DNA of 52,697 nucleotides from Clostridia bacterium (GTDB taxonomy: Bacteria; Bacillota; Clostridia; RGIG7378). Shown here in pieces: positions 2,031 to 51,718 of the stretch. The stretch is from assembly GCA_017501105.1 (NCBI GenBank), contig JAFVXO010000117.1, positions 1 through 52,697 on the forward strand. The letters run 5' to 3'. The notes under the pieces were generated by a model. That model made no database searches, was not told the DNA's origin, and saw nothing but the letters and a program-made list of their open reading frames with translations. Numbering within the stretch: position 1 is the first letter of the stretch; each line of letters begins with the position of its first letter. A program made the translations under genes and the position numbers.

Positions 2031-4137
2031 CTTGAGTTGCCTCTCCGTTGGTTGCTTCCTTGGCCCTGGATGCACACAATGGGTTACCGCACTTGACCAG
2101 GCGCCTGCGCTTAAAGTAGTTAGTCACCATAAAGCCACCACAGGTAGGGCAGGTTTTGTTATTCACAACGGTTCCCCATTCCATGTAGTCGCAGCTGGGA
2201 TTGTGCTCGCAGACCAGGTACTTCTTGCCCTTCTTGGTGGTGCGCTCCAGTACACTGCCTCCGCACTTGGGACAGTTGGCTCCGGAATCCACTCTGATAG
2301 GCTTGGAGTTCTTGCACTTGGGGTATCCGGGGCATGCCAGGAACTTGCCATTCCTGCCTGTCTTGACCACCATATTACGACCGCACTTGTCGCAGACCAC
2401 GTCGGAAACCTCCTCCTTGATCTCCATGGTGCTGATTTGAGTCTGAGCCTTGAGTATGGAATCCGCAAATGGACCATAGAAATCTCTGAGGATTTCCTTC
2501 CAGTTAGCGTCGCCCTCAGAAATGGAGTCCAACTTGTTTTCCATATCTGCAGTGAAATTCTTATCTACTATCTCTGTAAAGTTGTCCACCATAAGTTCGT
2601 TGACAACAGAGCCCAATTCCGTGGGAACCAGGTACTTCTTATCTCGCTCCACATAGGTTCTGGACACAATGGTGGCGATGGTAGGTGCATATGTGCTGGG
2701 ACGGCCGATACCCTCCTCCTCTATTGCCTTGATGAGGGTCGCCTCTGTGTATCGCTGAGGAGGCTGGGTGAAGTTCTGCTTGTCCTCCAATTTGTTAAGA
2801 GTCAAACAATTGCCCACCTCTAATGCGGGCAGCTTAACTGCAGTGTCGTCCTCCTTGGCATCGTCGGTGGTCTCCTCGTAGAGTGCCAGATATCCGGGGA
2901 ATGTAACCTTGCTGCCGGAGGCCTTAAATGTGTGGCCGTTGCAGTCGATATCCACCTGCATAGTGTCGTAGGTGGCTGAGGCCATAAGGCTGGCCAGGAA
3001 TCTATCCCAAATCAGCTTGTACAGCTTATACTGCTCACTTGTCAGAGATCCCTTGATATCCTCGGGGTGCAGGTCCAGATGGGCAGGTCTGATGGCCTCG
3101 TGGGCGTTTTGGCTGCCGGACTTGTTCTTGTAATAACGATCCTTGGCAGGCAAATACTGGCTGCCATAGGTGCTGCGTATAATCTCTTTGCCTGCTGCTC
3201 TGGCCTCGTCTGCAATACGGGTAGAGTCTGTTCTGATATATGTTACCAAACCTGTGGAGCCATGGCCCTGTATCTCAACGCCCTCGTAGAGCTGCTGAGC
3301 AATCTGCATGGTGCGTCCACTGGTAAATCCGTACTTGCGGGATGCGTCCTGCTGGAGAACACTGGTGGTAAATGGCGGTGCAGGGTTGCGGGTCTTGGTA
3401 CCCTTCTTGATACCTGATACTGTAAACTGCTGACCATTAATATCTGCCAACACCTTGTCTACTGCGGCCCTGTTGGGCAGAGCCTTCTTCCGGCCTTGTT
3501 CGCCGTAGTATTTGGCGTCAAAGGAAACACTCTCTCCTACAGGCGATAGGTTTGCTGTAATTGTCCAGAACTCCTTGGGCTCAAAGGACTTTATCTCCTT
3601 CTCCCTGTCACAGATCATACGGACCGCCACAGACTGTACTCTGCCTGCGGATAGTCCCTTCTGCACCTTGTTCCACAAAATTGGACTGATCTTGTACCCC
3701 ACAATGCGGTCCAGAATACGCCTGGTCTGCTGTGCGTCTACCAGGTGCATGTCTATGGCCCGAGGGCTCTGCAGTGCGGCCTTAACCGCATTGCCGGTAA
3801 TTTCGTTAAAGGTAATACGGCAGGGAGATTGGGGATCTATGCCCAAAATAGTGGCAGTATGCCATGCAATTGCTTCTCCCTCGCGATCAGGGTCCGATGC
3901 AATCAGAACCTGCTTGGCCTTGGATGCGTGCTTCTTCAGATTAGTAATAACGTCTGCCTTGCCTGTGATATTCACATATCTGGGCTTAAAGTCTCTGTCT
4001 ACATCTACGCCCAGCTGATTGGTAGGCAAATCTCTGATATGGCCTACTGTGGCCTCAACGTCAAAAGAGCCATCAAGAAACTTCTTGATAGTCTTAACCT
4101 TGGTTGGGGACTCTACAATTATCAAACACTCAGACAT
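2014..4137 (-). CDS. topA: DNA topoisomerase I
   Basis: TOPRIM start MSECLIIVESPTKVKTIKKFL, DPDREGEAIAWH, active-site region YIRTDS, and C-terminal Cys4 zinc ribbons (CDKCGRNM..CPGYPKC, CPKCGG..CEHNPSC, CPTCGG). Confidence 0.95.
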   Translation of the reverse strand: MSECLIIVESPTKVKTIKKFLDGSFDVEATVGHIRDLPTNQLGVDVDRDFKPRYVNITGKADVITNLKKHASKAKQVLIASDPDREGEAIAWHTATILGIDPQSPCRITFNEITGNAVKAALQSPRAIDMHLVDAQQTRRILDRIVGYKISPILWNKVQKGLSAGRVQSVAVRMICDREKEIKSFEPKEFWTITANLSPVGESVSFDAKYYGEQGRKKALPNRAAVDKVLADINGQQFTVSGIKKGTKTRNPAPPFTTSVLQQDASRKYGFTSGRTMQIAQQLYEGVEIQGHGSTGLVTYIRTDSTRIADEARAAGKEIIRSTYGSQYLPAKDRYYKNKSGSQNAHEAIRPAHLDLHPEDIKGSLTSEQYKLYKLIWDRFLASLMASATYDTMQVDIDCNGHTFKASGSKVTFPGYLALYEETTDDAKEDDTAVKLPALEVGNCLTLNKLEDKQNFTQPPQRYTEATLIKAIEEEGIGRPSTYAPTIATIVSRTYVERDKKYLVPTELGSVVNELMVDNFTEIVDKNFTADMENKLDSISEGDANWKEILRDFYGPFADSILKAQTQISTMEIKEEVSDVVCDKCGRNMVVKTGRNGKFLACPGYPKCKNSKPIRVDSGANCPKCGGSVLERTTKKGKKYLVCEHNPSCDYMEWGTVVNNKTCPTCGGFMVTNYFKRRRLVKCGNPLCASRAKEATNGEATQDESDN

Positions 4138-4196: not shown

Positions 4197-5294
4197 CTAA
4201 CCGGTTTTGCCAACAAACCAACCGGGTGTAACCTCGGTAACTTCCCCGAATAAAGTCAGGAACGTCAGAGACTGGGCTACGGTTCCCGGATCAAGTGACA
4301 GTGTGTCGCTCAACTGTTCTACCGTGCAGGGAGTAGACTTTATCTCAGCTAACAGCCGTTTGTCAAGATTGCTCAGTTCTATCCCCTGGGCTGTATAGCC
4401 GCTGTGTCGTCTGGCAAATACCCCTAATCCGCTATCCAGCATAAAGTCCTCATAGGAGGTATACACATGAGCCCCTTGCTGAATCATTTTGTTTGTACCC
4501 GTGCTCTTGGAACCGGTTATGTTGCCCGGTACGGCATATGTATCCCTGCCTATGTCATTCATATAATCCACTGTAGAGAAGCACCCGCTCTTTGTTCCCG
4601 CCTCTACCACCACCAGCACCGTGCCCAAACCCGCAATAAGTCTGTTTCTCAGTATAAAATCAGACCTGAATATTGGCTTGCCCGGAGGTACCTCTGTCAA
4701 CAGACAGCCCTCCGCCTTCAGAATAGGATTTATCAGATTACGATTTTCTACAGGATACGGCTTGTCTATGTTTCCTGCCAAAACTGCTACTGTGCGCCCT
4801 CCGTTTTCACAGGTGCTGCGATGGATCAGCCCATCCACTCCGCTGGCAAATCCACTGACAGTAGTTAGTCCATGGGTACCGCATTTGCGGCCCAGTTCCT
4901 CTGCCACAGCCATTCCGTAGTGAGAGCAGGCCCTGGTACCTATTACAGATACTCGCCTCTCCTTGGCCAACATCTTGCCCCTGTAAAACAGAGCAGGCGG
5001 CGGGTTTTGTATATCCATCAGAGACTGAGGATAATCCGAGTCTCCCATGAGGCAGACACCCACATTCTCCCTGCGTATTATTTCCATGGACTTGTCCGTA
5101 TACTCTGTAACTGCTCCCTCCGTCATTGCCTCCTTAGCCTTGTGAGACAGAAACTTCAGTCGTCCTATCTGATCTGCCGTTAATGCCCTTATATTTTCAA
5201 AGCTGCCAAACATGCGGAGCAACTTGCCAATTCCAGCCGGACCTATTTCAGGGATCATCAGGGTGTATATAACGTCATATATTTTCCTATCCAT
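4197..5294 (-). CDS. dprA: DNA-processing protein DprA (Smf)
   Basis: DprA Rossmann-like core (VSVIGTRACSHYG, SGFASGVDGLIHR, VVVEAGTKSGCFSTVDY). I moved the start to ATG 5294 (MDRKIYDV), which has AGGGGGA about 9 nt upstream. It overlaps the comM stop by 8 nt. Confidence 0.85.
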   Translation of the reverse strand: MDRKIYDVIYTLMIPEIGPAGIGKLLRMFGSFENIRALTADQIGRLKFLSHKAKEAMTEGAVTEYTDKSMEIIRRENVGVCLMGDSDYPQSLMDIQNPPPALFYRGKMLAKERRVSVIGTRACSHYGMAVAEELGRKCGTHGLTTVSGFASGVDGLIHRSTCENGGRTVAVLAGNIDKPYPVENRNLINPILKAEGCLLTEVPPGKPIFRSDFILRNRLIAGLGTVLVVVEAGTKSGCFSTVDYMNDIGRDTYAVPGNITGSKSTGTNKMIQQGAHVYTSYEDFMLDSGLGVFARRHSGYTAQGIELSNLDKRLLAEIKSTPCTVEQLSDTLSLDPGTVAQSLTFLTLFGEVTEVTPGWFVGKTG

Positions 5295-37876: not shown

Positions 37877-39565
37877 TTACTTGTGTCCGGCTCTTAATTT
37901 CTTCTGTCGCCTGTTCCAAATAACCATAACTCCGCCGACAAGCAGGATAGATCCAACAAGCGCAGAAACAATAATCAGTGTCAGTGTACCAAGTCCAATT
38001 CCTAGTCCATTGGTGGTGCCGGTAATAATGTACTGCACACCATCCTCGTCCGTCAGAGTGGACCCATCATAATCTATGCCATACTCCTTGGCCAGTGTCT
38101 TAGGAATGTTAACTTTGTCATCCTCAATGCCCGAGACATTAAGGGCAATCAAGTACTGTCCAGATACAGTGCCTGCCACATTATATGCGGCCATTCCCTC
38201 ATCATCCACAATGACGCTGGAAAGCTCCGTTAACTTTTTACCGTTTATGCTGTATAGAGTAGCCACTTGTCTTGCAGCATCTAACCCCAAGGGGAATCTT
38301 ACTGTTGTATTGTAGGTATTGCTGCCTAAAACAGCAGTATACGTAACAACGTCTCCCAGTAGATTTGCAAAGGATCCGGCCTCGTTGCGCACAATGGCAA
38401 CACTCAAGTTCTGCTGCCCGCTAATGGAGCTTGACGTCTGATCCTTAAACACAACATCCCAATAAACGTTGTCTGACGTATGAATTGTTACTGTAATGTC
38501 TAATTCAGAAAGCTCATCAAGCACGCCCTGCTCTATTACATCATAGTCCTGAATCTGGACCATTACATTAGGCTTCTCTCCTGAAGACAGAACATCTATT
38601 ATCTCATCAATAAGATCATCCCATCCTGATGAGTCCTTAATATTAGCACTAATGGTTGTTCCATACTCCTGCTCTGGCAGATATTCATTTTCTCTTATAG
38701 GCAGCTTATTGACTGTGGTTATGATTGCGCCATCTGTCTCCGAATATGTAATATCATTCCTAAAGGTCTCGTCGTCTCTAAGGACACATTCCTCGTCAAG
38801 CTGTTTTTGCAACTCCTGCTTAACCTCTTGTGTTCCGCCATAATCTACAAAATACAGGTTGGGACATTCGGATACAGCGTTATACTCAACAGTCTCAATA
38901 GTCTCCGGAAGATATAATTCCCAAAGAGCCCTACAGCCATAGAAGGTCCAGTAAGGAAGCACATCTAACCTACCTAAAACCCTGGCATATACCAGGTTGC
39001 TGCAATATGAAAAAGCACTATTTCCCAAATACGTTACGCTCTCAGGGATGGTAATGCCAGCAAGACTCTTGCAGCTGTAGAAGGCTTTGTCTCCAATAAC
39101 CTCCAGTGTGGATGGAAGATTAAGGTTTACCAGAGCCTTGCAGTCATAAAAACAGGCCCAACCTATCTCCTTCACTGCCGGCATATATATCTGAACTAAG
39201 CTATAGCAGTCCGAAAAGGCCAGGTTGCCCAATGAAACTACGCTGCTATCCATTTTAACAGTGGTAAGATTAACGCACTGGTAAAAAGCCATGTTGCCAA
39301 TGGACCTAACACCATCTGATACAACTACTCTCTGAATATCAGAGGCGAAACTGAACCATGGCGCCGGATATACCTCGGAATAATCTGCCATATCTCCTGT
39401 TCCTGAGACAGTAAGGACACCGCAATCATAGGACCATGTTACATTGTCGCCGCAGGAACCAGAGGCTTCTTCTGCCAGACCAACCACAGAAAAAGACAAG
39501 ACAAAGCTCGTAAGTATAGCCAATGCCATAATCAATGATATTAACTTGTGAGTACGAACAGTCAT
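37877..39565 (-). CDS. BspA-type leucine-rich-repeat surface protein with a signal peptide and a C-terminal transmembrane anchor
   Basis: Signal/TM segment LISLIMALAILTSFVLSFSVVGLA. Repeats of the form IGNMAFYQCVNLTTV / LGNLAFSDCYSL / IGDKAFYSCKSLAGITIP / LGNSAFSYCSNL. C-terminal LTLIIVSALVGSILLVGGVMVIW followed by a basic tail. Confidence 0.75.
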   Translation of the reverse strand: MTVRTHKLISLIMALAILTSFVLSFSVVGLAEEASGSCGDNVTWSYDCGVLTVSGTGDMADYSEVYPAPWFSFASDIQRVVVSDGVRSIGNMAFYQCVNLTTVKMDSSVVSLGNLAFSDCYSLVQIYMPAVKEIGWACFYDCKALVNLNLPSTLEVIGDKAFYSCKSLAGITIPESVTYLGNSAFSYCSNLVYARVLGRLDVLPYWTFYGCRALWELYLPETIETVEYNAVSECPNLYFVDYGGTQEVKQELQKQLDEECVLRDDETFRNDITYSETDGAIITTVNKLPIRENEYLPEQEYGTTISANIKDSSGWDDLIDEIIDVLSSGEKPNVMVQIQDYDVIEQGVLDELSELDITVTIHTSDNVYWDVVFKDQTSSSISGQQNLSVAIVRNEAGSFANLLGDVVTYTAVLGSNTYNTTVRFPLGLDAARQVATLYSINGKKLTELSSVIVDDEGMAAYNVAGTVSGQYLIALNVSGIEDDKVNIPKTLAKEYGIDYDGSTLTDEDGVQYIITGTTNGLGIGLGTLTLIIVSALVGSILLVGGVMVIWNRRQKKLRAGHK

Positions 39566-40266: not shown

Positions 40267-43200
40267 TTAGGATGGATTATTAATTACAATGTCTGCAATA
40301 TCAAAAATATAGGTGCAATTTGCAGAATCTGTCAACTCAAGATAAGAACCTGTCAATATAAGAGCTGCTTCCTTAGACTGATCGTTTGAATACAGTCTAC
40401 CAATATTTCTCATGACATCACCATCTGATTTCCATTCAAATGAATCAGTCTGTACACCATCTGCATACATATATACTCCAGCTGCATTGTCAGTCTCAAA
40501 CTTAATCTTAGCCCCTGTAGCTGATCCCATACCAGCAAGGTTCATAGTAACAGAGGGATGGTGATACTTTGTGGTCTCACTACATCCATTTGATTCGGTA
40601 TACTTGTGGAAATATATAGTTGTGTTTGTATCCGTTATGGTTGCGGAACCTTGAGAGCTTTCTGAGGCATACGAAGCGGACGTAATTTTCACTGTAGGTA
40701 TTTTGGATGCAACAGTCAAAACATTATTTTCCCTATACTCATAGCTTGTGCCATTAGACAATGTTACCTTAATTGTTCCATTATATGAGCCAGCCAAACC
40801 AGTCGTCATTCCACTCTCAGGAATATACATATGACCTGTAGTTGCATTTTGCCATGTATAGCTCAAAGACTGGTATCTGGATGTACCAGAAATGGTATAT
40901 CCACCCTTCTCTAGGCTGTCTCCGCTATGAGTTAACGTAAGAGTTACGCTCTGAATAGTTACTCCAGCCTCTGCCATGGTGAAACCAATCTTTTCTCTGA
41001 TGTTAATCCACAGACCGTTCTTGGAACCATCTGAATTATCTGTATACTTGCCAAGATCAACCTCAGTCATAAAGTCGATTCCACTGAAAGTTATAGGATT
41101 AATATCCATGGTGAATCCTTCAAAAATGCTCATCTGGTGGCCCACATTCAACTTATAGTACTGGGCGATAGCATTTTCATCATCTGTACCATAGTAATTG
41201 CCCTGCGGATCGTATACGCCATCAATCAGGATCTCCCTTACAGTCCATATTCCGTGTCTGCTGCCATCTTCTTTAGGCACGGGGAAGTAGTAATTTCCAT
41301 CCTCCACCTTATCTACGGACACCTCATATGTTTTGCCTGTTGGACTATTTACAAATACTGCCTTAACAGAGGCTGCACCATCTGCATTAGTAATATTTGC
41401 GGCAAAATCAACCGATGCACTTGTCTGCACAAAATAGCTGTTCTGGGAGGTTGTTCCTAAATATTCTGGTGGATCAATGGATCTTGCGGCAATGCCTGGA
41501 GCCCCTGTAGCAATCGTAATGGTATTAGTACCTACCACCAACTTAGTGAAGTTAAATACACCAACTTTATCAATGTTAAATGTGCCTTCGTAGCTACCTT
41601 CACTCCATGTTAAGGTTGTCTGAAGTCCATTAGCAGATACAGTTGATCCCCTCTTGCCATAATACAAGGTTATATCGTATGGCAAAGAATTCAACGCATT
41701 GCCTGTATTAGTCAATATCTGTACACTAACGCCAATGGTCCTTGCCCCCTGGTAATCGAATGAAATATCCGAACTACCATTGTCTAAGTAAACACGAGCC
41801 TGTAATCCCAAGTATGCAGTAAATGTAGACTGGAATGCCTCATCCAGCTCGTAATAAGCCTCCTCGTATGTAGCCCCCTCTCCAACACCAATTACCAGGT
41901 ACTGAATAGTATAAGTACCACTGGTTGTAAAGCCTGCATTGCCTGTCCACTGCCTTGTCAATGCATCATAGGCAAGGTCGCAGGTAATATATGTACCCTC
42001 TGCAGAAACAATTCTTGCAGAAACTCTAGTTGGCATCAGGTTAGAATCAAACTTAACCGCAACAGATCGGGTTACATAGTTCTCAGCGGTCAACGCTATC
42101 TCTTCGCCAACGAGATTACAGAAATTTACAGCTTCTACTGCAAATCCAGACACCTCAACTGTAATCCAATACTGCTGTGGCAGCGCATACTCAACGCCTC
42201 CTACCCATAAACTCTTTAATACATAGGTTCCGGGCATTGTAAAGTTACATTCTCCTGACCAAACAGTACCGGAAGTATTGGTAAGAGTAATTGGATTGGT
42301 ACGCATTCCCTGACTGGAGTTAATCTGTCTCTGGAATATTGCCTGAACCAGGGTTCCTTCTCCGATAGAGAGTCCTTCAATATAGGCGGTTAAAACAGGA
42401 TTCTTGGCAACTCCATCGTATGTGAACTTATTGTCACTAATCTCTGCTGAAAAGCTCATTGTCTGCATGGACAAATCGGTATTTTTGAGAGCAGTCAAAT
42501 CTGCAGATGAGCCAAATTGGAAGTTCAAATTGCCCTGAATGCTACCGTTAGACATAGCCATGCTATTGTCTAAATCAGTACCCTCCAGGTACAGTACTAC
42601 GCTAATCCTGGTAGCAACATTCTTCTCAAGCTTAACGATACCGTTGCTAATATTTCCGTTAGCATCAGTATATTCACATCCCAAACTTGAAACATAAATA
42701 GGAACAATGTACTTACCGCTGTCAGCAAATACCATATCCACGTCGAATTCGGCCTCGGCTAACAGTTCTCCCTCTGCGCAAACGAAGGCAATCTTGAGAT
42801 TTTTTAGCATCTCAAGTGAAGCAGCTGCGCTCTCCGGTGTATCTGCGTAGAAAATAAAGCAACTGCCGGATCCCTGTGTGGCACTTGTCTCACCAGACTC
42901 TACGTAAAGGTCATCATATACACGATTAGATCCATTAAATCCAGTAACTATTACTTTGGAGTCCATCTTTGGTGTAACATCCTCAGAGGTAATTGGATCA
43001 GTTTCCTCTACTACCTTTATTGTAGTTGGATTTCCATTTTCATCTAGAATTGGATTTCCATTTTGATCTTTAGTATATTCCTTAACAACAGCCCTTTTTA
43101 CTAATGTCCTATCAGAAATAGTATAATATTGACCATCCTCTGCAAGATAAACCAAAACTTCTTCGGTGGCTTCTATCCCGCCAACTACTTCGCCAGTAAT

Positions 43201-44835
43201 TCTATTATAAACAAATACTTCTCGAGATACAGACTCACCACTCAATACAACTTTTCTCTGCTCAGAAATTGTCTCTGTAGAAACAAGACCATCTAATGTG
43301 AGCACGGAATCCTCAGCGTTTGTGCGGAACCACAGGTCGAGCACCATGCCATACGTATCCTGAGCCACCATACTGGATGCAAAGTTAGCATCCATTTCCA
43401 TTGTTTTTTGAACTAGGCCCAGGAATTCGTTTGTATTAGAATTGGTCGTCAAATGTCCTGTCAGCTTTTTTCCGCCTCCGCCAATACCAAGAATCTCAAC
43501 CTTAAGATTAAGTGGATACAAACTTACATCCATACGTACGCCAGTCATGTCCTCAAACTGCTTAAGAGAACCATTGGTCGCCACTACCTCTAGTACTTGA
43601 TCGTCCTTTGTGATGTCTCCTAAGAAACTAAGAGCAACATCTACACCACCACTCATCAAGGCAGCAACCGACTGGGTTTGCACACCATTATTAATAGTTA
43701 CTGTATCGATATCCAGGAGGGTATTTACAATAAGCAAAAGTTCAGTCTCATCTCTCAGCTCAATGGTATCGCCATTATTGACCCTTTGAAGATATGTCTC
43801 CATTGTACCTAAATCAGCAAAGAAATGAGCTTCTAAGTCCTTATATGTTTTTAGAACCGTACCAAGTTCGACACCGTTGGCCTTAAGGGATGCTTCACTG
43901 GCATTCATTAATGACTGACGAGTATATTCAGTATACTCTGTTCCCTTAAGAGACTGCTGGATGTTTGCAAGGTATGCCAATGCGTCGCCAAATGGATATA
44001 TGGCATTGTTGTACAACTCAAAAAACATATTGTACAGTTGTGTGATTTGAGCCTTGGATAACGTACTATCTTTAGATATTCCAAGGGATGGAAGAATTAA
44101 TCCAGCTAAACCACCATATGTCGGATGATTGGCTACAACATCGTATATATTATAGTGCAAATAAATCTGAACCACGTCACGAATTGTATCCACGTATCCC
44201 TTATTGTTCATTACGGCCTGATATCCATCTGTTGCAATTTTTGCCTTATCCTTTGCAACCTCTAATTTATCCTGAAGAATAGTCAAACCTGTATTTGCAT
44301 AGGCTACAGAGGAAATAGCCCTGACTCCATATGTTGTGGTGCTGGGCACAACAAAGTCATAGTACCCCAACTGGGCGTCAACAACAGTCCACTGGGTGAA
44401 ACCAAAATTAGTTGTTTCTCCCTCTACTCTGCCGCCGTCAGTATAGGAAACACTGGACAAAAAGTACTTAGAGCTAGTTGTAAATGTGGCAGGACGCAGT
44501 ATCAAGTTCTCGATACCATAGTTGCCGCTTAGGTTAAGCAAGTTGCTCCAGGCAAGATTGGATTCCATAACTCCCTTTTTAGAATCGCCAATCTTAGTAC
44601 TGTCTGGAGCCAAACCATCCAAATCGGACAGGGCAATTTCCAGGTTGCCGTTTGCAGAAACAGTAGTTGAAACATTAGAAACCTCTGGAGCAGAAGCCAT
44701 CGTGTACCAGGCGTAACTGGTTGCAGAAATCATGACCAAAGAAAGCACTAACATAAATGCCACTGCTGCAATTCGTTCCTTAAGCCCCGGAAGTGCTTTC
44801 CTTAATTCTAATATATTCTTTTTGGTATCTGTCAT
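40267..44835 (-). CDS. Giant (1522 aa) secreted beta-rich protein with a TasA/camelysin-style, SipW-cognate-type signal peptide
   Basis: N-terminus KERIAAVAFMLVLSLVMISATSYAWYTMAS...VSANGNLEIALS. For comparison, TasA has ...GGGTWAAFND...FASGTLDLSA. The rest is long Thr/Ser/Gly/Val/Asn-rich beta-type sequence with no LPXTG and no lipobox. A GAGAGGGA RBS is present. Confidence 0.7.
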   Translation of the reverse strand: MTDTKKNILELRKALPGLKERIAAVAFMLVLSLVMISATSYAWYTMASAPEVSNVSTTVSANGNLEIALSDLDGLAPDSTKIGDSKKGVMESNLAWSNLLNLSGNYGIENLILRPATFTTSSKYFLSSVSYTDGGRVEGETTNFGFTQWTVVDAQLGYYDFVVPSTTTYGVRAISSVAYANTGLTILQDKLEVAKDKAKIATDGYQAVMNNKGYVDTIRDVVQIYLHYNIYDVVANHPTYGGLAGLILPSLGISKDSTLSKAQITQLYNMFFELYNNAIYPFGDALAYLANIQQSLKGTEYTEYTRQSLMNASEASLKANGVELGTVLKTYKDLEAHFFADLGTMETYLQRVNNGDTIELRDETELLLIVNTLLDIDTVTINNGVQTQSVAALMSGGVDVALSFLGDITKDDQVLEVVATNGSLKQFEDMTGVRMDVSLYPLNLKVEILGIGGGGKKLTGHLTTNSNTNEFLGLVQKTMEMDANFASSMVAQDTYGMVLDLWFRTNAEDSVLTLDGLVSTETISEQRKVVLSGESVSREVFVYNRITGEVVGGIEATEEVLVYLAEDGQYYTISDRTLVKRAVVKEYTKDQNGNPILDENGNPTTIKVVEETDPITSEDVTPKMDSKVIVTGFNGSNRVYDDLYVESGETSATQGSGSCFIFYADTPESAAASLEMLKNLKIAFVCAEGELLAEAEFDVDMVFADSGKYIVPIYVSSLGCEYTDANGNISNGIVKLEKNVATRISVVLYLEGTDLDNSMAMSNGSIQGNLNFQFGSSADLTALKNTDLSMQTMSFSAEISDNKFTYDGVAKNPVLTAYIEGLSIGEGTLVQAIFQRQINSSQGMRTNPITLTNTSGTVWSGECNFTMPGTYVLKSLWVGGVEYALPQQYWITVEVSGFAVEAVNFCNLVGEEIALTAENYVTRSVAVKFDSNLMPTRVSARIVSAEGTYITCDLAYDALTRQWTGNAGFTTSGTYTIQYLVIGVGEGATYEEAYYELDEAFQSTFTAYLGLQARVYLDNGSSDISFDYQGARTIGVSVQILTNTGNALNSLPYDITLYYGKRGSTVSANGLQTTLTWSEGSYEGTFNIDKVGVFNFTKLVVGTNTITIATGAPGIAARSIDPPEYLGTTSQNSYFVQTSASVDFAANITNADGAASVKAVFVNSPTGKTYEVSVDKVEDGNYYFPVPKEDGSRHGIWTVREILIDGVYDPQGNYYGTDDENAIAQYYKLNVGHQMSIFEGFTMDINPITFSGIDFMTEVDLGKYTDNSDGSKNGLWINIREKIGFTMAEAGVTIQSVTLTLTHSGDSLEKGGYTISGTSRYQSLSYTWQNATTGHMYIPESGMTTGLAGSYNGTIKVTLSNGTSYEYRENNVLTVASKIPTVKITSASYASESSQGSATITDTNTTIYFHKYTESNGCSETTKYHHPSVTMNLAGMGSATGAKIKFETDNAAGVYMYADGVQTDSFEWKSDGDVMRNIGRLYSNDQSKEAALILTGSYLELTDSANCTYIFDIADIVINNPS

Positions 44836-44850
44836 TTGTACTGTCCCTCT

Positions 44851-45312
44851 CTATCTCAGCCGTCTCCTGATCCCGGCAAGGCACCTGCCACAAAAATGGC
44901 GAATGCCTCGTGAACAATGCCAGATCCGGCTGTATAGTAGATATCCCATATTATTTACAGAATAATACTTTGTACCACGATAAAAACCTGTGACTATGGC
45001 AATAATCTGGTCATGTCGGATGCCATGCTCCAGATTGAACTGATTATCGCCAATGCAAGTATATGTCTTCCCTACTTTAACCACTCTGTGTAGAACAAAA
45101 CAGCCATCGTCTCTCCTGTACAGAGGAATATCATATTTTCTAGGTACGCCCTTATACGATTCTAAAATTACACTGTCTACCCCTTGACGCAACATGGGTA
45201 ACATACTGATACCCCGTGGGGAGAATTTGACAGGTTTGCCTTGAGCTAAATATTCCTCTATCAACGGCATCAGTTGCTCGAGATGTATCTCGTTCTCAAA
45301 TGAGCAATCCAT
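44851..45312 (-). CDS. S24/S26 (clan SF) serine-peptidase-like protein without a transmembrane segment
   Basis: PRGISMLPML matches the GxSMxP nucleophile motif. FVLHRVVKVG...CIGDNQ resembles the HR / GDN boxes of SipW/Sec11-type signal peptidases, or the K of LexA-type S24. There is no hydrophobic anchor, and the C-terminal tail is basic and Cys-containing. Its start overlaps the PqqD-like gene by 17 nt. Confidence 0.65.
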   Translation of the reverse strand: MDCSFENEIHLEQLMPLIEEYLAQGKPVKFSPRGISMLPMLRQGVDSVILESYKGVPRKYDIPLYRRDDGCFVLHRVVKVGKTYTCIGDNQFNLEHGIRHDQIIAIVTGFYRGTKYYSVNNMGYLLYSRIWHCSRGIRHFCGRCLAGIRRRLR

Positions 45313-45556
45313 TGTCTTTTAGCTTATTTACAAAGCGCTGGACACCTGCCCTGGCAGTCGCCTCGTCTACGCTATATTCTCTAAGTAATGCAGCAACCAA
45401 TCTGTCCTCATCTGTATCCTGCTGCAATTCCTGCCACAGAAATTTTCCTGTGTCGTTTAGTTTAATCATCTTGGTAAGATCCAGATCGTCACCGGTTGGC
45501 AGGACAACAGTTGTTCCTGCGACCTCTCTTACAATATAACCATCTTTAATCTTCAT
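45296..45556 (-). CDS. PqqD-family protein (RiPP recognition element-type peptide chaperone)
   Basis: 86 aa: DGYIVREVAGTTVVLP...MIKLNDTGKFLWQELQQDTDEDRLVAALLREYSVDEATARAGVQRFVNKLKDNGLL. This is the typical PqqD/RRE pattern (beta-strands followed by a winged helix). It overlaps the kinase gene by 11 nt. Confidence 0.8.
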   Translation of the reverse strand: MKIKDGYIVREVAGTTVVLPTGDDLDLTKMIKLNDTGKFLWQELQQDTDEDRLVAALLREYSVDEATARAGVQRFVNKLKDNGLLI

Positions 45557-46262
45557 TTGAATCCTCCAACTTACGACCAGACATGGCCTCGTAGGATAGA
45601 CGAACTGCCTCCGGTTCCATATTACATTTGAGTTTCCATACAGGCACCTTAGTCAACAGTTGGTCCAATAACTCCAGTATCTTAATACGGTGCTCCACTT
45701 CAGTCGACTTAGTTGACTGTTTAAGTATAGCTCCTATGGCCTGCACTCCACCAAAAGGCTCTATAGTGTTAGTCTCACCTCTCTCCAGACAGGCAATGCC
45801 TGCCAGAGGAACTCTCTTGTTTACACTAATATCGTGCTTACCACTCCATGGTGTACCATATACGTACCAGATGCCATCCTCTAATCGAAGAGCCGGCTTA
45901 TCGTCATTGATAATATAGGCTCTCTGGCCAAAATGTTGTAGCCATAGACTAGTATGGGTGGATTTGCCCGTACCACTGTTTGCTGTAAATAGATATGCCT
46001 TATTGTCCACCACCACAGCGGAAGAGTGAAGCATAAAGCCATCAAAATTAAAGAGCTGGGTATAAAAGGATTTGCCTGTAGATAAATACTCACAATCGTC
46101 ATCAGACAAGCGGGGAAACAAATTCTTTACATATTGGATATCAGAATGAACCTTAATATCTATGCCAGGACAACTATCTATCTGGTATGGTATGCTTTGT
46201 TCCAGAGTCCTACCATAGCTGTCCATCTCAACATATAACCCAGCAATCTTGTAAATTCCCAT
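45546..46262 (-). CDS. HPr-kinase-C-terminal-like P-loop kinase (HprK-related)
   Basis: FMLHSSAVVVDNKAYLFTANSGTGKSTHTSLW is a P-loop in the HprK-like context, followed by GTPWSGKHD. It is 238 aa with no recognisable N-terminal HprK domain. Confidence 0.7.
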   Translation of the reverse strand: MGIYKIAGLYVEMDSYGRTLEQSIPYQIDSCPGIDIKVHSDIQYVKNLFPRLSDDDCEYLSTGKSFYTQLFNFDGFMLHSSAVVVDNKAYLFTANSGTGKSTHTSLWLQHFGQRAYIINDDKPALRLEDGIWYVYGTPWSGKHDISVNKRVPLAGIACLERGETNTIEPFGGVQAIGAILKQSTKSTEVEHRIKILELLDQLLTKVPVWKLKCNMEPEAVRLSYEAMSGRKLEDSNED

Positions 46263-46306
46263 AAGTTACTTACGCAAAAGTAAAATAATCCTCTAATAGA
46301 ACTATT

Positions 46307-46328
46307 CCCCCCAGTGAAGACTGGGGGG
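46307..46328 (-). promoter_or_regulatory. GC-rich hairpin between the small ORF and the kinase gene (attenuator / processing-stabiliser candidate)
   Basis: CCCCCCAG-TCTTCA-CTGGGGGG on the minus strand, an 8-bp stem (46307-46314 and 46321-46328). It begins 15 nt after the small-ORF stop. No clean U-tract follows (AATAGTTCTATT). Confidence 0.5.
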
Positions 46329-46343
46329 ATAATCTAATTCAAG

Positions 46344-46439
46344 TTAGACGAGCTCGCTGGTCTCCCAAGGATCATTAACCATAACTTCCTCTGTCTCCAG
46401 AGAGATTACCTCAATCTCAGGATTCTCATAATTCTTCAT
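46344..46439 (-). CDS. Unlisted 31-aa acidic small ORF, candidate precursor or signalling peptide
   Basis: My manual translation gives MKNYENPEIEVISLETEEVMVNDPWETSELV*. AGGAGG lies 8 nt upstream of ATG 46439, which is 21 nt after the stop of the 1734-aa gene. A hairpin follows, then the kinase/PqqD/peptidase genes. It falls below the ORF-track length cutoff. Confidence 0.55.
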   Translation of the reverse strand: MKNYENPEIEVISLETEEVMVNDPWETSELV

Positions 46440-46460
46440 GTATAAATACCTCCTAAAAAA

Positions 46461-49400
46461 TTATTTACCAAAGTAGATTCTAGCATATTCGCCGTAGATT
46501 ACCATCCTTCTACATGCCTCTGCCAAGTCGCCACCACTATTTCTGTCAATAACAACTCTTGTATACTCTTCAGGGCTGAATGCAATTACATCACTGTAAT
46601 ACTCATTGCCTTCAGCATCCTCAAAGTATGCACAAGCATATATTGTCTTAGAGTAGAGAGCGGCGGGATAAATGTCAGACTTACCCTTATAGCGTCCATT
46701 GTCCTCAAGATCCATATCTACGGTATATGATACATTACCTGTAGTAAGTTGTCCACTTACTCCATCCCAAACCAACAGCTCATGCACTGTAGCCTCGCCA
46801 CTGAATGTGAAATAGTAGTTAATCTCAGTTGCTGCATCCAGAGACAATGTCTTACCAATATGTACTACCTCTGCATCACCTGTGATGTTTGTGTCTGCAG
46901 CGACAAGATCTGTCAACAAATCTGCATTCCATTCCTCAGGTGGATACTGAGCTACAATACTTGCATTTGCAAGGTCATCAGTATTGTGGTTGAAATTAAT
47001 CTGTGCCGCTGTACCATAGTGCAGCAATGCAATACATGTGTCTACAAGAGCAGGATTATTGTTCCTTGCAATTACAGACTCGCAGTAATCCTGAACACTG
47101 AACTCCTTGAGTTCGCTGTAGTAGTAGTTATCTCCTACCTTAACGTAGCCTCTGATGTAGATCTCGTCTGCAAACTCAGCCGCATCAAAGCCATCTGTCT
47201 GACCGCCCCAGCCCCAGTTTGCATTTTCTGATAATACCAGGCCTACCTTGTTAATTGCGTCTGTATTGGTAATAACTGCATCCTCCAGGTTAGGCTCACT
47301 GTACCAGACAAGCATACCACTGTTGGTGGACATATCTACTCCATCAAAGCCTGTGACCTTAAAGTAAGAGTTAATGAATACCTCTGCCTCCAGAGACAAT
47401 GTAGAACCGTTGTATACGATGGTACCATTGGTCTCGTCTACAACAATAGTTACATCGTAGTTATCGTTGTCGTATGTAACCTCTCCGTCAGCATACTGAA
47501 GGTTAAGTACATCAACGCCCTCTCTGGCAAGAACATCATCATCGAACTCAACGTCCTTAATCACGCCATTTTCAACAATAACCTTAATATTTACCGGACG
47601 AGCTACAATCTCGAATACACCTGTCTCTACATCTACCTCGTAGTAACCGGAATTCTCAGTTACATCTGCGAAGATAGTGTACTTACCGACATTTTCTCCC
47701 TGCACTCTCTGGATCTCCACAAGGATGTCATACAAGCTGGACTCGTCATCCATTGTGTAAGTGAACTCCGGATCTGCGTCGCCATAGTACTTCCAGTCGT
47801 CATCAACAATTACATCGGCATGAATCTCATAATCCAGAGCCTTAAGAATCTGCTGTGAAATATATGCATGACCTGTTGCATTCGGATGCAGTGCAGAGCC
47901 GCCTGTTGCTAAGGTTTCGTACAAGTACTCAGGAACCTTGATTGTAATGGGTTTACCGTGTACAGAAACTGTCTTCCAATCTGTAAGATCCACAAGATTC
48001 TTGTTTGCATCTGTGTCAGAAATGCACAGTTCTGTGTCGGGAATGGCAACCGTTACAATGCGGCTACCACTGTCTGCAGCAGTATCATTGCCAGCATAGT
48101 CGCCTACAAAGTTTGTAAGGAAGCGATTTGACTCCTTAACAACCAACTCTGTAATAGCAGATGTGTTAATGACAAACTTGGAAAGATCAACTGTATGCCC
48201 CTTAACCTCAACTACTTTGTTCACCTTAACATATGTGTCCTCGAGAGGATTGTAGAATCCAACAAGAACGATTGTAGCGTCCTTATTCATTTCAGCAATA
48301 GTCTCTACTGCAGCATCAAGGTTGGCCACATAGCCAATACATCCATATGCAAAGGACTCAACAGCTACAAAGAATGTCTCCAAAGCTCTCTTGCACTCAT
48401 CATATGCAGAAATGCCGGTTTCGTCCTCGAGACGACTATCTGCGTTGTCTACCAGATAGAGGAGCATATCCATAGCAACATCTTTACCCTTTTCAAATCT
48501 TGCTACATTTCTGGTGGAGAAGTACTGAGTCCAATCCATCTCGTAGATATCCTCTCCGTTGTAGGCAAGCAGTGCCTGAGTCATGGGGTATGTCACGAGA
48601 TTGTTGATACCAACCTCCAGTGTTATCAGCTCAGCGTCAACAATAGCTGCCTGATACTGAGCCTTAATGCCGGCAATATTAAACTTAGCATCTGTATATG
48701 CATCGCCGGAGTAGTTGTTAGATACGATAGCCAACAACTCCTCTGTTCTCATGCCATTAATAGCAAGGTTGTTAATCTTGTCATTATCGTAGTTGGCGAT
48801 ATCCTTGTACTCCATAGCAAGAGCATCTGCCAACATATCTACATATGTCTTGTCTCCACTATTGAGTGCTGTGCCGCTGGTAACATTGTCACCAAGAGCT
48901 ACAAATGCCTCGGGATTAATAATTGTAGCGGCCTGACCAGAACCTGTTGTGGGCAAGGACAGGTACTTCTTAGTAATGTGATAGATGTCCTTGGCACCAT
49001 TTACAACCTTATCAATAAGGCTGTTTGCAAGGCTACCAGCTGTGGACTCCATATCCTCACCGTTAATAGCGGCAACAATACGATTTGCAATGTACTGATG
49101 ACCATTTGCGCTAGGCATTATCATCATACCATCTGCCAAATAGTATCTAAGTGCCAGATATGCAACTGTCATCTCATCATCTTCAAGAGTCTGGTTAACA
49201 AGCAGATTGTCTACCATATCAAGGATATAGGACTGACCTCCGGCAACAACCTTCTTTCCAACGGAGATAATGTCATTAAGGCTGATAACTTCAATCTCTG
49301 CCAGATCCTTAAGCATTTCGTAAACAGGATCCAGGTACTCATTGATTGTATCTGCACTGCTCATTGCAAGATCAATGGCCTCAACATACTTGTCATATCC

Positions 49401-51665
49401 CTCAAGTATCTTGGAAATTGCTGTCTCGCGAAGCTCATCAAAGTTACCAAAGTTTCCTACATTAAGCTTGCCATCTGCGTCGCAGTTCTCATTGTAAACC
49501 TTGAGAATCTCTGCAACTGTTGTTTCCTTAATCTCAACAAAGTCTGCACAAGCTTCTGCTGCTGTATCTACACTCTCCAGATATAACTTAACCGCATCAA
49601 TAGAAGATTCGGCTGCATCAGAATAAATCTCATATGCTTCATTAAATTCTGTAACAAGCACATCATAAACTGCTGGTACTCCAATCAAGTTATCCCAGTC
49701 ATTCGCAATCAAAACACTATCAAGCCATGTCTTAAGGGCTGTGTCCTTATCTACTGCATTATCCATAGATAGGAATAAACCATAGATGTCTTCTGAAGAA
49801 ATTTTATTTCCAAAGATATCTATAATCATCTGATATGTCTTTGCCTTAGCTGCAGCAGCTGCGCGAATCTCATTTCGTACAATATCCTCTGCCGCTTCGC
49901 CATTAGGTGCTGTCTCTATAGCTGTAACAAACGCATCAACAGAACTATATGTGGCTATATTAAGCCCATTTGAGTTATAAGACTCCTCTACCTTTGAGAC
50001 AATATAGTCGTGGAAAATATCATTGATGAGGTACTCTCTTGCAACAGCCCCAGGATTGTTGGAAGCCTCCATAGCAAGAAGCATAGCAATTGCCTTGTCT
50101 TTTGAATATGTACCCTCTCCAACGATACTCTCGACCTTTTCAACAATCTTGTCTGCGGCAAGTTCACGAACCCACTTGTTAGCAACGTCCTCTCTCTCTG
50201 CCTCAGTGCCACATGCTCTCAGGTCCTCAATCAACTGTTCTACATTTTCTACTGTTACGTATCCTGACAGTTCGTAATCCTCGATATATCCGTAGATAAC
50301 CTTAGCTGCAGCCTGATTCTGCAGGGTTTCATCCTCAATAAGGGAGTCAACAAAATCCTCAGCTACCTGCTGACGAGCTGCCTCATCTGCAGCGGCCTCA
50401 AGATCGGCCAACAGGTCAGAAATGTCCTCTGGATCAATTACCTCGTTCTCCTCATCAGCAAACTGTCCAAGGTACTCGAGAAGTTCTCTTTGGAACTGAT
50501 CCTCGATCTCTGCTATAACGTAACCCTGCAACTCGCTCTTGATGAACTCCTTCTCTGTGCCATTTTCCTTGGCCTCAATGAGTTCCTCAAGGAAACCAAG
50601 AGCCTCAATCTGAGTCTTGGAAATACCATATTCTGCAAAAATGTCAATTACCTCATTAACAGCCGCATCGCCGGAAAGGTTAACGAGTTCCATGATAAGT
50701 CCCTCGGGAATACGCTCATTATCAGTAAGCTTTGTGTTGCCCATCTGATCGATAAGGAGCTCCGGAGCTCCCGGATCAACATAAGTATAGTTATATGCTC
50801 TGGGAGCAAGAACCTGAACATATGCATTGGCAATCTCTACCAAGCCTCCAAAGAAGTCGCCAACAGGCAACTCTATGGGCCTGCCACCCTTGGAAAGCTT
50901 ATCGTAGGTAAGAACCTCACCCTCAGCAGGGTTGTAAATTCCAACAATGTACAACTCCACATCAGGGTTCAGCTCGTAGATTGTAGAAACCATTGCGTTA
51001 AAGCTGGTAACATAGCTAAGCACTGCATATGTGGAAACCTCTGCGATAAAGTCAATAAGCTCGATAGCCACATCAACATCATCGTTTGCTGCGCTTAACA
51101 TAAGGTTCTTGATAGTAGCCTTAACCTTCTCAAGGGCGGACTGAACATCCTCCTCAAAGAATGCATCGAAGCTGTAGCTGTACTTGACCTCTCCGTCATT
51201 CTCCAAATAATGCATCATCTGCTCCACAATGTACGTGGAGAAGTTGTTAACACCGGCATTAATTGTGATGACCTCTGCACCGGCAATCCATCTCCTGACG
51301 GTTGCGGTGTTACGCTCCATTTCACCTACTACGCTTCTAGTGTATCCGTCACCATTATAGCTGTCATCCATCAGGTAGCGAATCTCCTCAACTCTGTAGC
51401 GCTTATCTGCCTTAATACGATAGTCATCTTCTCCATCGATAAGACCAGCAGTTGCCAATGCCTGGGCGACCAGCACATAGTATGCCTCCTGCTCTGGATA
51501 CTCCAATCCAGTGCCTAGGGACATGGCGTCACCCAGTGCCAGATAGCCTGCCTCATCGAGCTCTGGTGTAGTGATAGCTGCCAAGGTCGGACTCATGACA
51601 TTAAACACCATCGCAAGAGCCAAAAGCAGTGCGCTGCACTTCCTTAAACACTTACCAATACGCAT
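46461..51665 (-). CDS. Giant (1734 aa) secreted protein: two degenerate SGNH/GDSL-like domains, a long acidic helical insertion, an MBG domain and a duplicated C-terminal module
   Basis: Signal peptide MRIGKCLRKCSALLLALAMVFNVMSPTLAA. SGNH-like blocks occur twice: LGDAMSLG / GVNN / VGIYNP / MPSANGHQYIA, and LGDNVTSG / GINN / VGFYNP / LHPNATGHAYIS. MBG-like segment KYYGDADPEFTY...GENVGKYTI (47595-47792). I moved the start to ATG 51665 (AAGGAGA RBS), because the track start 51713 lies at the predicted transcription start. Confidence 0.7.
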   Translation of the reverse strand: MRIGKCLRKCSALLLALAMVFNVMSPTLAAITTPELDEAGYLALGDAMSLGTGLEYPEQEAYYVLVAQALATAGLIDGEDDYRIKADKRYRVEEIRYLMDDSYNGDGYTRSVVGEMERNTATVRRWIAGAEVITINAGVNNFSTYIVEQMMHYLENDGEVKYSYSFDAFFEEDVQSALEKVKATIKNLMLSAANDDVDVAIELIDFIAEVSTYAVLSYVTSFNAMVSTIYELNPDVELYIVGIYNPAEGEVLTYDKLSKGGRPIELPVGDFFGGLVEIANAYVQVLAPRAYNYTYVDPGAPELLIDQMGNTKLTDNERIPEGLIMELVNLSGDAAVNEVIDIFAEYGISKTQIEALGFLEELIEAKENGTEKEFIKSELQGYVIAEIEDQFQRELLEYLGQFADEENEVIDPEDISDLLADLEAAADEAARQQVAEDFVDSLIEDETLQNQAAAKVIYGYIEDYELSGYVTVENVEQLIEDLRACGTEAEREDVANKWVRELAADKIVEKVESIVGEGTYSKDKAIAMLLAMEASNNPGAVAREYLINDIFHDYIVSKVEESYNSNGLNIATYSSVDAFVTAIETAPNGEAAEDIVRNEIRAAAAAKAKTYQMIIDIFGNKISSEDIYGLFLSMDNAVDKDTALKTWLDSVLIANDWDNLIGVPAVYDVLVTEFNEAYEIYSDAAESSIDAVKLYLESVDTAAEACADFVEIKETTVAEILKVYNENCDADGKLNVGNFGNFDELRETAISKILEGYDKYVEAIDLAMSSADTINEYLDPVYEMLKDLAEIEVISLNDIISVGKKVVAGGQSYILDMVDNLLVNQTLEDDEMTVAYLALRYYLADGMMIMPSANGHQYIANRIVAAINGEDMESTAGSLANSLIDKVVNGAKDIYHITKKYLSLPTTGSGQAATIINPEAFVALGDNVTSGTALNSGDKTYVDMLADALAMEYKDIANYDNDKINNLAINGMRTEELLAIVSNNYSGDAYTDAKFNIAGIKAQYQAAIVDAELITLEVGINNLVTYPMTQALLAYNGEDIYEMDWTQYFSTRNVARFEKGKDVAMDMLLYLVDNADSRLEDETGISAYDECKRALETFFVAVESFAYGCIGYVANLDAAVETIAEMNKDATIVLVGFYNPLEDTYVKVNKVVEVKGHTVDLSKFVINTSAITELVVKESNRFLTNFVGDYAGNDTAADSGSRIVTVAIPDTELCISDTDANKNLVDLTDWKTVSVHGKPITIKVPEYLYETLATGGSALHPNATGHAYISQQILKALDYEIHADVIVDDDWKYYGDADPEFTYTMDDESSLYDILVEIQRVQGENVGKYTIFADVTENSGYYEVDVETGVFEIVARPVNIKVIVENGVIKDVEFDDDVLAREGVDVLNLQYADGEVTYDNDNYDVTIVVDETNGTIVYNGSTLSLEAEVFINSYFKVTGFDGVDMSTNSGMLVWYSEPNLEDAVITNTDAINKVGLVLSENANWGWGGQTDGFDAAEFADEIYIRGYVKVGDNYYYSELKEFSVQDYCESVIARNNNPALVDTCIALLHYGTAAQINFNHNTDDLANASIVAQYPPEEWNADLLTDLVAADTNITGDAEVVHIGKTLSLDAATEINYYFTFSGEATVHELLVWDGVSGQLTTGNVSYTVDMDLEDNGRYKGKSDIYPAALYSKTIYACAYFEDAEGNEYYSDVIAFSPEEYTRVVIDRNSGGDLAEACRRMVIYGEYARIYFGK

Positions 51666-51718
51666 ATAATTTCTCCTTCTAAAATAATACGGATTCTTAT
51701 TAAATTTAACCATAGTTT

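Follow-up and report, generated by a model that had tools for sequence, protein, structure and literature searches.

The closest described counterpart of the locus examined here is the pathway to Linear Polyphosphorylated Peptides (LPPs), defined in Bacilli by Popov et al. (Nat Commun, 20 May 2026; PMC13381572), whose sections on the cluster, its enzymes and its delimitation, together with Supplementary Data 1, are drawn on below. The LPP cluster of Paenibacillus alginolyticus has the order lppA-K-B-S-D-N and encodes a precursor (lppA), an HprK-like kinase (lppK), a discrete recognition element for peptides made by ribosomes and modified after translation (RiPP recognition element, RRE; lppB), a signal peptidase I-like (SpI-like) peptidase (lppS), an MsbA-like pump (lppD) and a nucleotidyltransferase (NTP transferase; lppN); LPP clusters lack a cyclase and are often embedded in capsule loci (PMC13381572). 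LppK attaches as many as four phosphates to core residue Ser3 and refuses the S3T and S3Y variants, and deletion of lppK abolishes the +80 Da series just as deletion of lppS abolishes leader cleavage (PMC13381572). LppS cuts after T-1, acts poorly on the unphosphorylated precursor and requires LppB, the presenting RRE, and the substitutions S29A, H68A and D93A each inactivate it (PMC13381572). The LPP leader carries a Px9Fx[T/A] motif and has the consensus YxxPxVLxHQxIxFETxxS, and the LPP analysis was confined to cluster 1 of a sequence similarity network (SSN; PMC13381572). Here we describe a cassette of four genes on a 52,697-nt stretch of DNA from an uncultured Clostridia bacterium (contig JAFVXO010000117.1 of assembly GCA_017501105.1; the whole stretch is referred to as the window), which we take, with a probability of roughly 0.78, to be a minimal and divergent LPP-type RiPP cassette in the order lppA-K-B-S, with a linear acidic phosphopeptide as its predicted product.

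The cassette had been singled out in an earlier note, made from the sequence alone, as four minus-strand open reading frames (ORFs) encoding a 31-aa peptide, an HprK-like kinase, a PqqD/RRE protein and an S24/S26 peptidase without a transmembrane (TM) segment. The positions given there were reproduced exactly: the PqqD gene shares 11 nt with the kinase gene and 17 nt with the peptidase gene, and 15 nt lie between the peptidase stop and the ATG of a 1522-aa gene (Table 1). The spacing of the AGGAGG sequence ahead of the precursor ATG, given as 8 nt, had to be corrected to 9 nt. In the NCBI annotation of this metagenome-assembled genome (MAG) the kinase is a hypothetical protein and the RRE a PqqD family protein. 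The note had concluded that the combination fits no known class, a view that is now out of date, since the four genes form the core of the LPP cluster type and a table in PMC13381572 already lists such Clostridial peptidase-RRE pairs. That table places peptidases beside RREs in Clostridia, Planctomycetota, Acidobacteriota and Bacteroidota, all of them under 'RRE others', where the count of LPP RREs is 0 and the precursor is entered as undetermined; Clostridia, radical S-adenosylmethionine (radical SAM) enzymes and acidic cores go unmentioned in the sections of the paper's text drawn on here. Our search of the literature for kinase, PqqD and peptidase combinations returned, besides this paper, lasso peptide papers only. 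The mechanism proposed in the note, in which the peptide is recruited by the RRE, phosphorylated and proteolytically trimmed, is supported because the window shares gene order, the overlap of the B and S genes and homology with LppK, LppB and LppS, the functions of which were demonstrated experimentally in the LPP pathway of P. alginolyticus (PMC13381572). For these comparisons the LppS, LppB and LppA sequences were taken from Supplementary Data 1 of PMC13381572, and a locus of P. frigoriresistens (L081), whose LppS is 97% identical to LppS, served as the reference; it has the same gene order as the window and a small overlap of its B and S genes, and a lasso cyclase and B2 protease adjoin its lpp genes. 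A scan of GTDB species genomes provided a further 80 related loci, almost all of them from Oscillospiraceae, Faecousia or Eubacteriales MAGs of animal guts.

The first gene of the cassette encodes an lppA-like peptide of 31 aa with a net charge of -8, in which residues 1 to about 21 form the predicted leader, bearing Y4-x-x-P7-x-I9 (Y4-E-N-P7-E-I9), and NDPWETSELV forms the predicted core, with Ser28 as its sole Ser. Conservation of this small ORF had been named beforehand as a test of the proposal, and the outcome was favourable: a hidden Markov model (HMM) of the leader scores the window peptide at E = 1.8e-10, and the family is found in about 30 of the 80 related loci. The family alignment is gapless around the Pro and consists of a conserved leader, with the consensus MK(K)x[YF]xxPE[IV]E[VI][IV]x[FL]xxE[DE][VI][IM]TxS, followed by a hypervariable acidic tail; the [YF]xxP motif is present in 30 of 31 family peptides, and the window peptide has YxxP, the lasso-type motif. 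Among the predicted cores (n = 30), the median length is 17 aa, against 10 aa for the window core, and the median charge is -5. Ser is missing from none of the 30 and occurs a single time in 19 of them, the chance of a Ser in every core being about 8e-6, a rough figure as the sequences are related. Every related precursor ORF has a Shine-Dalgarno sequence upstream (GGAGG, AAGGAG or GAGG). Between the window and its closest relative (L001), the ratio of nonsynonymous to synonymous differences (pN/pS) is 0.17 for the precursor ORF and 0.19 for the RRE gene, values consistent with purifying selection on both. As LppA is cut after T-1, by analogy the boundary between leader and core would lie at about V19-M20-V21/N22, with cleavage after approximately V21, and if the Ser-only specificity of LppK carries over, Ser28 would be the only candidate phosphosite. 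One related locus (L062) contains two near-identical precursor copies (3319-3438 and 4772-4891) in which two tail residues differ (..GNPEWED versus ..GNTDWED), and thus encodes more than one precursor.

The prediction of an HprK-like kinase stood with respect to fold, P-loop and the profiles matched by relatives, and did not with respect to the Pfam model the note had named, as PF07475 (Hpr_kinase_C) gave no match to the window protein and the local Pfam library was otherwise empty for it too. Although PF07475 is silent, an AlphaFold2 (AF2) model of the protein (mean predicted local distance difference test, pLDDT, 90.7) matches the HprK/P C-domain fold, with HprK/P and phosphoenolpyruvate carboxykinase as the top Foldseek matches (E from 2e-5, probability 1.0), and the protein sits in a sister family, PF27840 ('ScmC'), according to its precomputed Pfam annotation; this family also matches LppK. 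NCBIfam matches of the window protein were weak, the best being ScmC (29 bits versus a cutoff of 125) along with HprK_rel_A, and all 25 aligned relatives match both ScmC (best 3e-10) and HprK_rel_A. An SGTGKST P-loop (residues 97-102 onwards) and an NDDKP motif (119-123) are invariant. BLASTP aligned residues 75-211 to an LppK orthologue with 27% identity over 143 aa (E = 1e-12), whereas the match to the adjacent lasso kinase of the reference locus was weaker (E = 6e-7). To our knowledge, ScmC has never been characterised biochemically. With just 27% identity to LppK, a ScmC score so far under its cutoff, and a core with no Ser at a site where many relatives carry it, it is conceivable that the same pathway operates with a ScmC-like protein that is not a Ser kinase and instead performs adenylylation or nucleotide hydrolysis or acts as a scaffold, leaving a linear product that is unphosphorylated or otherwise modified. 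We consider this unlikely, as the SGTGKST and NDD motifs are invariant, the fold matches that of HprK/P, LppK and the lasso kinases, as its nearest characterised homologues, all phosphorylate Ser, and each predicted core keeps at least one Ser.

The PqqD/RRE call was borne out directly: the protein scores 69.1 bits against PF05402, well above the cutoff of 23.4, and is the sole one of the three proteins to pass a Pfam model in this way. Its best NCBIfam matches were two lasso B1 models, both under their cutoffs. The protein is 29% identical to LppB (E = 1e-6) and 40% identical (E = 5e-26) to the Dehalobacter RRE WP_015045202.1, an entry under 'RRE others' in the table of PMC13381572. In Supplementary Data 1 of that paper, the row for WP_052168594.1, a Dehalobacter peptidase, gives SCH01659.1 as the RRE identifier, yet the sequence printed there equals WP_015045202.1, the RRE of Dehalobacter; SCH01659.1 proper stands in the SSN cluster 9 row, a point that concerns only those who reuse the table.

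For the fourth protein, the assignment as a TM-less S24/S26 peptidase held at the level of the superfamily and for the absence of a TM segment (the maximal Kyte-Doolittle mean over 19 residues is 0.71), while curated Pfam and NCBIfam models, including the two suggested for it, PF00717 and PF10502, gave no match to the window protein. Searches of PDB sequences with single sequences or with profiles of alignments A1 and A2 returned nothing useful, and hhalign of the shallow alignment A1 with Sec11 of yeast and LexA of E. coli gave probabilities below 1%; signal peptidases and LppS were reached only with A3, an alignment of greater diversity. With it, the PDB matches of the family profile were five signal peptidases only, human SEC11A and SEC11C among them, in which the SM-P, HRV and GDN boxes line up, and hhalign against LppS gave a probability of 98.6% (E = 1.2e-15). 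The residues predicted to be catalytic, Ser36, His75 and Glu95, align with S29, H68 and D93 of LppS, and G34, S36, P39, H75, R76, G88, D89 and E95 are invariant in an alignment with 66 relatives. Pfam Peptidase_S24 is matched by 32 of the 66 diverse relatives, and three relatives match TIGR02228 (sigpep_I_arch; 2e-6). An AF2 model (pLDDT 81) returned LexA, lambda cI, UmuD, SpsB, LepB and SipA in Foldseek. On this sequence and model evidence, the protein is assigned to S24/S26 at the superfamily level and is most like S26B, the archaeal-type signal peptidase I. By BLASTP it is 22% identical to LppS (E = 2e-9) and 40% identical (E = 2e-34) to SCH01704.1 from an uncultured Ruminococcus (SSN cluster 9), the closest among the table entries compared. 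The family is large: a word-limited search gave at least 1,212 clusters at 90% identity, and against a library clustered at 50% identity the profile found 5,350 representatives at E<=1e-3, 160 of them at E<=1e-30.

The likeness of the peptidase to SipW and Sec11, the end of its gene only 15 nt before that of the 1522-aa protein, and the presence of a large surface protein ahead of the cassette or precursor gene in 24 of the 80 loci raise the question of whether it might instead process the neighbouring surface proteins of 1522 and 1750 aa in the manner of SipW, with the kinase acting on a protein and the small ORF being incidental or regulatory. This seems very improbable. A peptidase without a TM anchor cannot sit at the outer membrane face as true signal peptidases do, a neighbour of the 1522-aa type recurs in L001 alone while an ABC exporter lies downstream in most loci, conservation extends to the small ORF and its RRE-type leader, and LppS, as described in the LPP paper, cleaves its precursor only with the RRE (PMC13381572). 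The 1522-aa protein was also considered separately as a SipW-type (TasA-like) substrate and was rejected, as it has no NCBIfam match and this neighbour recurs only in L001.

Synteny of the three enzyme genes in other genomes, which had likewise been named as a test, was observed widely: kinase, RRE and peptidase genes are collinear on one strand in 57 of the 80 loci, and an RRE is present in 63. In 47 loci an MsbA-like ABC exporter directly follows the peptidase gene, and 14 contain a PF14907 (NTP_transf_5) gene; capsule or extracellular polysaccharide (EPS) genes, including Wzz, CpsB, CapD, LCP and sortase, are frequent nearby. The window has neither of the first two, as tblastn with representative ABC exporter and NTP_transf_5 (PF14907) sequences against the window and Pfam scans of its large ORFs found no match, and no ABC ATPase or capsule genes occur in the window. 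As most relatives (47/80) have an exporter after the peptidase and the cassette is squeezed between two giant surface-protein genes, it could be a decaying LPP-type remnant from which exporter and NTP transferase have been lost and no product is made. We regard this as quite unlikely, because none of the four ORFs is disrupted, their starts overlap in a way that couples translation and the catalytic residues are conserved, and because the same minimal set, with the exporter and NTP transferase also missing, is found in L001, a second genome with the same architecture and with 71-94% amino-acid identity to the window cassette, the low pN/pS values given above, and a retained ribosome-binding site and hairpin.

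The hairpin lies within the spacer of 81 nt that separates the precursor gene from the kinase gene and is GC-rich, with the arms and loop CCCCCCAGU-CUUC-ACUGGGGGG and no T-run after it. The spacer region (46263-46345) folds at -28 kcal/mol (z = -3.95), and none of 200 shuffled sequences was equally stable. An equivalent hairpin follows the precursor in L001, L002, L025, L037, L039, L047, L050, L054 and L062, while in a second subgroup (L015, L031, L051, L056, L071, L075, L078 and L079) the precursor stop lies no more than about 11 nt from the kinase start or overlaps it. Behind each precursor ORF of the family there comes, accordingly, either a GC-rich hairpin or the kinase gene itself. The hairpin probably serves as a partial terminator or transcript stabiliser that would favour precursor over enzyme mRNA.

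Set against the published LPP clusters, the window has in common the order of precursor, HprK/ScmC-like kinase, discrete RRE and SpI-like peptidase, the overlap of the B and S genes, homology of kinase, RRE and peptidase to LppK, LppB and LppS, a YxxP leader and the lack of a macrolactam synthetase; related Clostridia loci, though not the window, additionally carry an MsbA-like exporter, a PF14907 gene and often a capsule or EPS setting. Several differences weigh against our assignment. The window proteins are only 22-29% identical to the characterised ones; the peptidase falls outside SSN cluster 1, where edges require E of about 1e-23 or lower as compared with 2e-9 to LppS here, and is nearest to cluster 9 among the entries compared; and the RRE is much nearer to the Dehalobacter RRE of the 'RRE others' group than to LppB. 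The leader here does not conform to Px9Fx[T/A], with a Pro-Phe/Leu spacing of 7 rather than 10: the residue 10 positions after P7 is E17, the family has Phe/Leu at P+7 and Thr at P+14, and the window peptide itself has Val at P+14 and Asp at P+16. In LppA the phosphorylated Ser is core residue 3; the window peptide has Asp where Ser is found in many relatives, and its core has a single Ser, four residues from the C-terminus. Finally, counterparts of lppD and lppN are missing from the window, and without an exporter and NTP transferase there the pathway may be incomplete, or may be completed elsewhere in the genome. Other differences concern the core, which in LppA has 45 aa, is rich in Gly, Asn and Pro and carries a charge of +4, while Clostridia cores are short and strongly acidic; the third catalytic residue, Glu in the window peptidase and Asp in LppS; and the hosts, which are Clostridia (Oscillospiraceae-type gut and rumen MAGs) and not Bacilli. 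The cassette would work like an LPP cluster yet lies outside the published delimitation by SSN cluster, precursor motif and D and N genes, and it most likely represents a divergent relative of the LPP pathway in gut and rumen Clostridia rather than a new class.

If the activities of LppK and LppS carry over to this distant branch, as the analogy suggests, the pathway would begin with translation of the 31-aa precursor, the N-terminal leader of which (Y4-x-x-P7-x-I9) would be bound by the discrete PqqD-type RRE. The ScmC/HprK-like kinase would then phosphorylate the core at Ser28, possibly several times, and the RRE would present the predicted leader-core junction to the soluble SpI-like peptidase with its putative Ser/His/Glu catalytic residues. 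Removal of the leader would release NDPWET(pS)ELV, a phosphopeptide that is linear, acidic and some 10 residues long.

Phosphorylated lasso peptide clusters (paeninodin, pseudomycoidin and Bsf) resemble the window in having an HprK-like kinase that acts on an RRE-bound precursor, a discrete B1/PqqD RRE and a leader motif of the YxxPxL type, and often have an ABC exporter and a PF14907 nucleotidyltransferase. They differ in that they possess their own Asn-synthetase-like cyclase and B2 protease. The SGGxDS PP-loop motif of Asn synthetases was absent from the window and from all 80 related loci, Pfam scans of the window gave no Asn_synthase match, and a transglutaminase-like B2 protease was found neither in the window nor in any of the 80 loci; there was likewise no lasso cluster near the cassette in the window. 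As the cassette has no cyclase or B2 protease, and leader removal is assigned instead to a clan SF serine peptidase, the product is predicted to be linear. A further difference is that lasso kinases phosphorylate a C-terminal Ser, whereas the C-terminal residue is variable in the window family. Radical SAM, LanB/C/M and YcaO families were also absent from the large window ORFs scanned with Pfam, and the absences listed in the earlier note (lasso cyclase, B2 protease, radical SAM enzyme, LanB/C/M, YcaO and exporter) therefore hold for the motif and tblastn searches and, for the large ORFs, the Pfam scans.

With SipW, Sec11 and archaeal signal peptidase I (MEROPS S26B), the window peptidase shares the fold and the SM-P, HR and GD boxes, but it has no membrane anchor and scores below every curated threshold, its gene is coupled to an RRE gene, and its predicted substrate is a cytoplasmic RiPP leader and not a Sec signal peptide. 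The SynChlorMet cassette (ScmC, ScmD, ScmE and ScmF; TIGR04248-04251) is alike in combining a ScmC-type P-loop protein with a PqqD-like protein, and the radical SAM enzyme of one related locus (L006) matches ScmE best; the window differs in having no radical SAM/SPASM genes, and its scores are far under the equivalog cutoffs. We know of no SpI-like peptidase in the SynChlorMet cassette.

The cassette forms part of a small surface-protein island amid an otherwise housekeeping chromosome (Table 1). Its immediate upstream neighbour encodes a 1750-aa protein with two GDSL-lipase-like regions and an MBG domain, and the 1522-aa protein on its other side has an N-terminal TM segment and no family match. 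Next in the island come an Lgt-like protein, short at 223 aa (PF01790), and a leucine-rich repeat (LRR) protein of the BspA type. The remaining genes of the window are those of an ordinary chromosome and include TopA, DprA, PheST, MurG, Rho, Mfd, Pth, MurC, RuvB, aconitase and SerRS. A defence-system reading was dropped because PADLOC anti-phage models gave no meaningful match.

Table 1. Positions, in window coordinates, of the cassette and of the features adjoining it.
Feature	Positions	Strand	Remark
Precursor ORF, 31 aa	46344-46439	minus	MKNYENPEIEVISLETEEVMVNDPWETSELV
Kinase gene, 238 aa	45546-46262	minus	lppK-like
RRE (PqqD) gene, 86 aa	45296-45556	minus	lppB-like
Peptidase gene, 153 aa	44851-45312	minus	SpI-like
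Shine-Dalgarno AGGAGG of the precursor ORF	46449-46454	minus	read from the sequence; 9 nt to the ATG
GC-rich hairpin in the precursor-kinase spacer	46307-46328	minus	from folding of the spacer
Kinase/PqqD gene overlap	45546-45556		11 nt
PqqD/peptidase gene overlap	45296-45312		17 nt
Gap from peptidase stop to 1522-aa gene	44836-44850		15 nt
1750-aa protein gene	46461-51713		immediate upstream neighbour
1522-aa protein gene	40267-44835		
Lgt-like protein gene, 223 aa	39587-40258		PF01790
BspA-type LRR protein gene	37877-39565		

Two further features of the related loci were recorded. In 28 of them (for example L044:5298-5957, L023:4682-5032 and L016:1905-2582) there is a lipoprotein family without a curated match, which we call c3 and which goes unmentioned in the sections of the LPP paper drawn on here (PMC13381572). 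It consists of a lipobox or TM anchor, a low-complexity acidic linker and a conserved C-terminal domain of about 65 aa with the pattern ..TYEEY.AMS..EQ.AY..SF.S..DFF.WYNAAK.EYD.E.P.IEIG.DGSIDLGDI.., and its gene is positioned either just ahead of that for the kinase or in between those for the RRE and the peptidase. It was considered as an alternative precursor and set aside, as it is conserved towards the C-terminus and variable towards the N-terminus, opposite to what a precursor shows. In 17 loci the peptidase is present and kinase and RRE were undetected by tblastn (L007, L009-L013, L016, L020, L021, L026, L028, L043, L044, L052, L055, L067 and L077); several of these, including L011, L012, L016, L021, L044 and L067, have an NTP_transf_5 gene on the divergent strand, c3 where present, the peptidase and an ABC exporter.

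Three related loci combine the leader family, RRE and SpI-like peptidase of the window with RiPP-type radical SAM enzymes. L006 (2120-5954) encodes a ScmE-like radical SAM/SPASM enzyme and no kinase, L017 (1821-5555) encodes a TIGR04463/PapB-like radical SAM enzyme in addition to a kinase, and L029 (245-5751) encodes an ApyD-like B12-radical SAM enzyme plus a kinase; the precursor cores of L006 and L017 contain Cys. These hybrid loci suggest that the pair of RRE and peptidase is a portable leader-processing module. We advance tentatively, at somewhat less than even odds, the broader idea that an RRE with a soluble SpI-like protease constitutes a general, portable module for leader recognition and removal in gut and rumen Clostridia, working with varied tailoring enzymes (mostly a kinase, elsewhere radical SAM/SPASM or B12-radical SAM enzymes), and that the window cassette is the smallest representative of a very large family whose products are short acidic (phospho)peptides. 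Such a family would differ from the LPPs of Bacilli in its leader code and in the chemistry of its cores, and would possibly be linked to the cell surface or EPS.

Read as a divergent LPP-type cassette, the locus introduces no new principle and extends a known one: the logic of kinase, RRE and SpI-like peptidase, described in 2026 in Bacilli only, would reach into a large branch made up of uncultured Oscillospiraceae from gut and rumen. The short acidic cores with one or few Ser residues should make the products of this branch much easier to detect or synthesise than the 45-residue LppA core. Its differing leader code would offer a natural test of how RREs discriminate between leaders, a question addressed in PMC13381572, and the radical SAM hybrid loci suggest that the RRE and peptidase pair may be reusable across RiPP chemistries.

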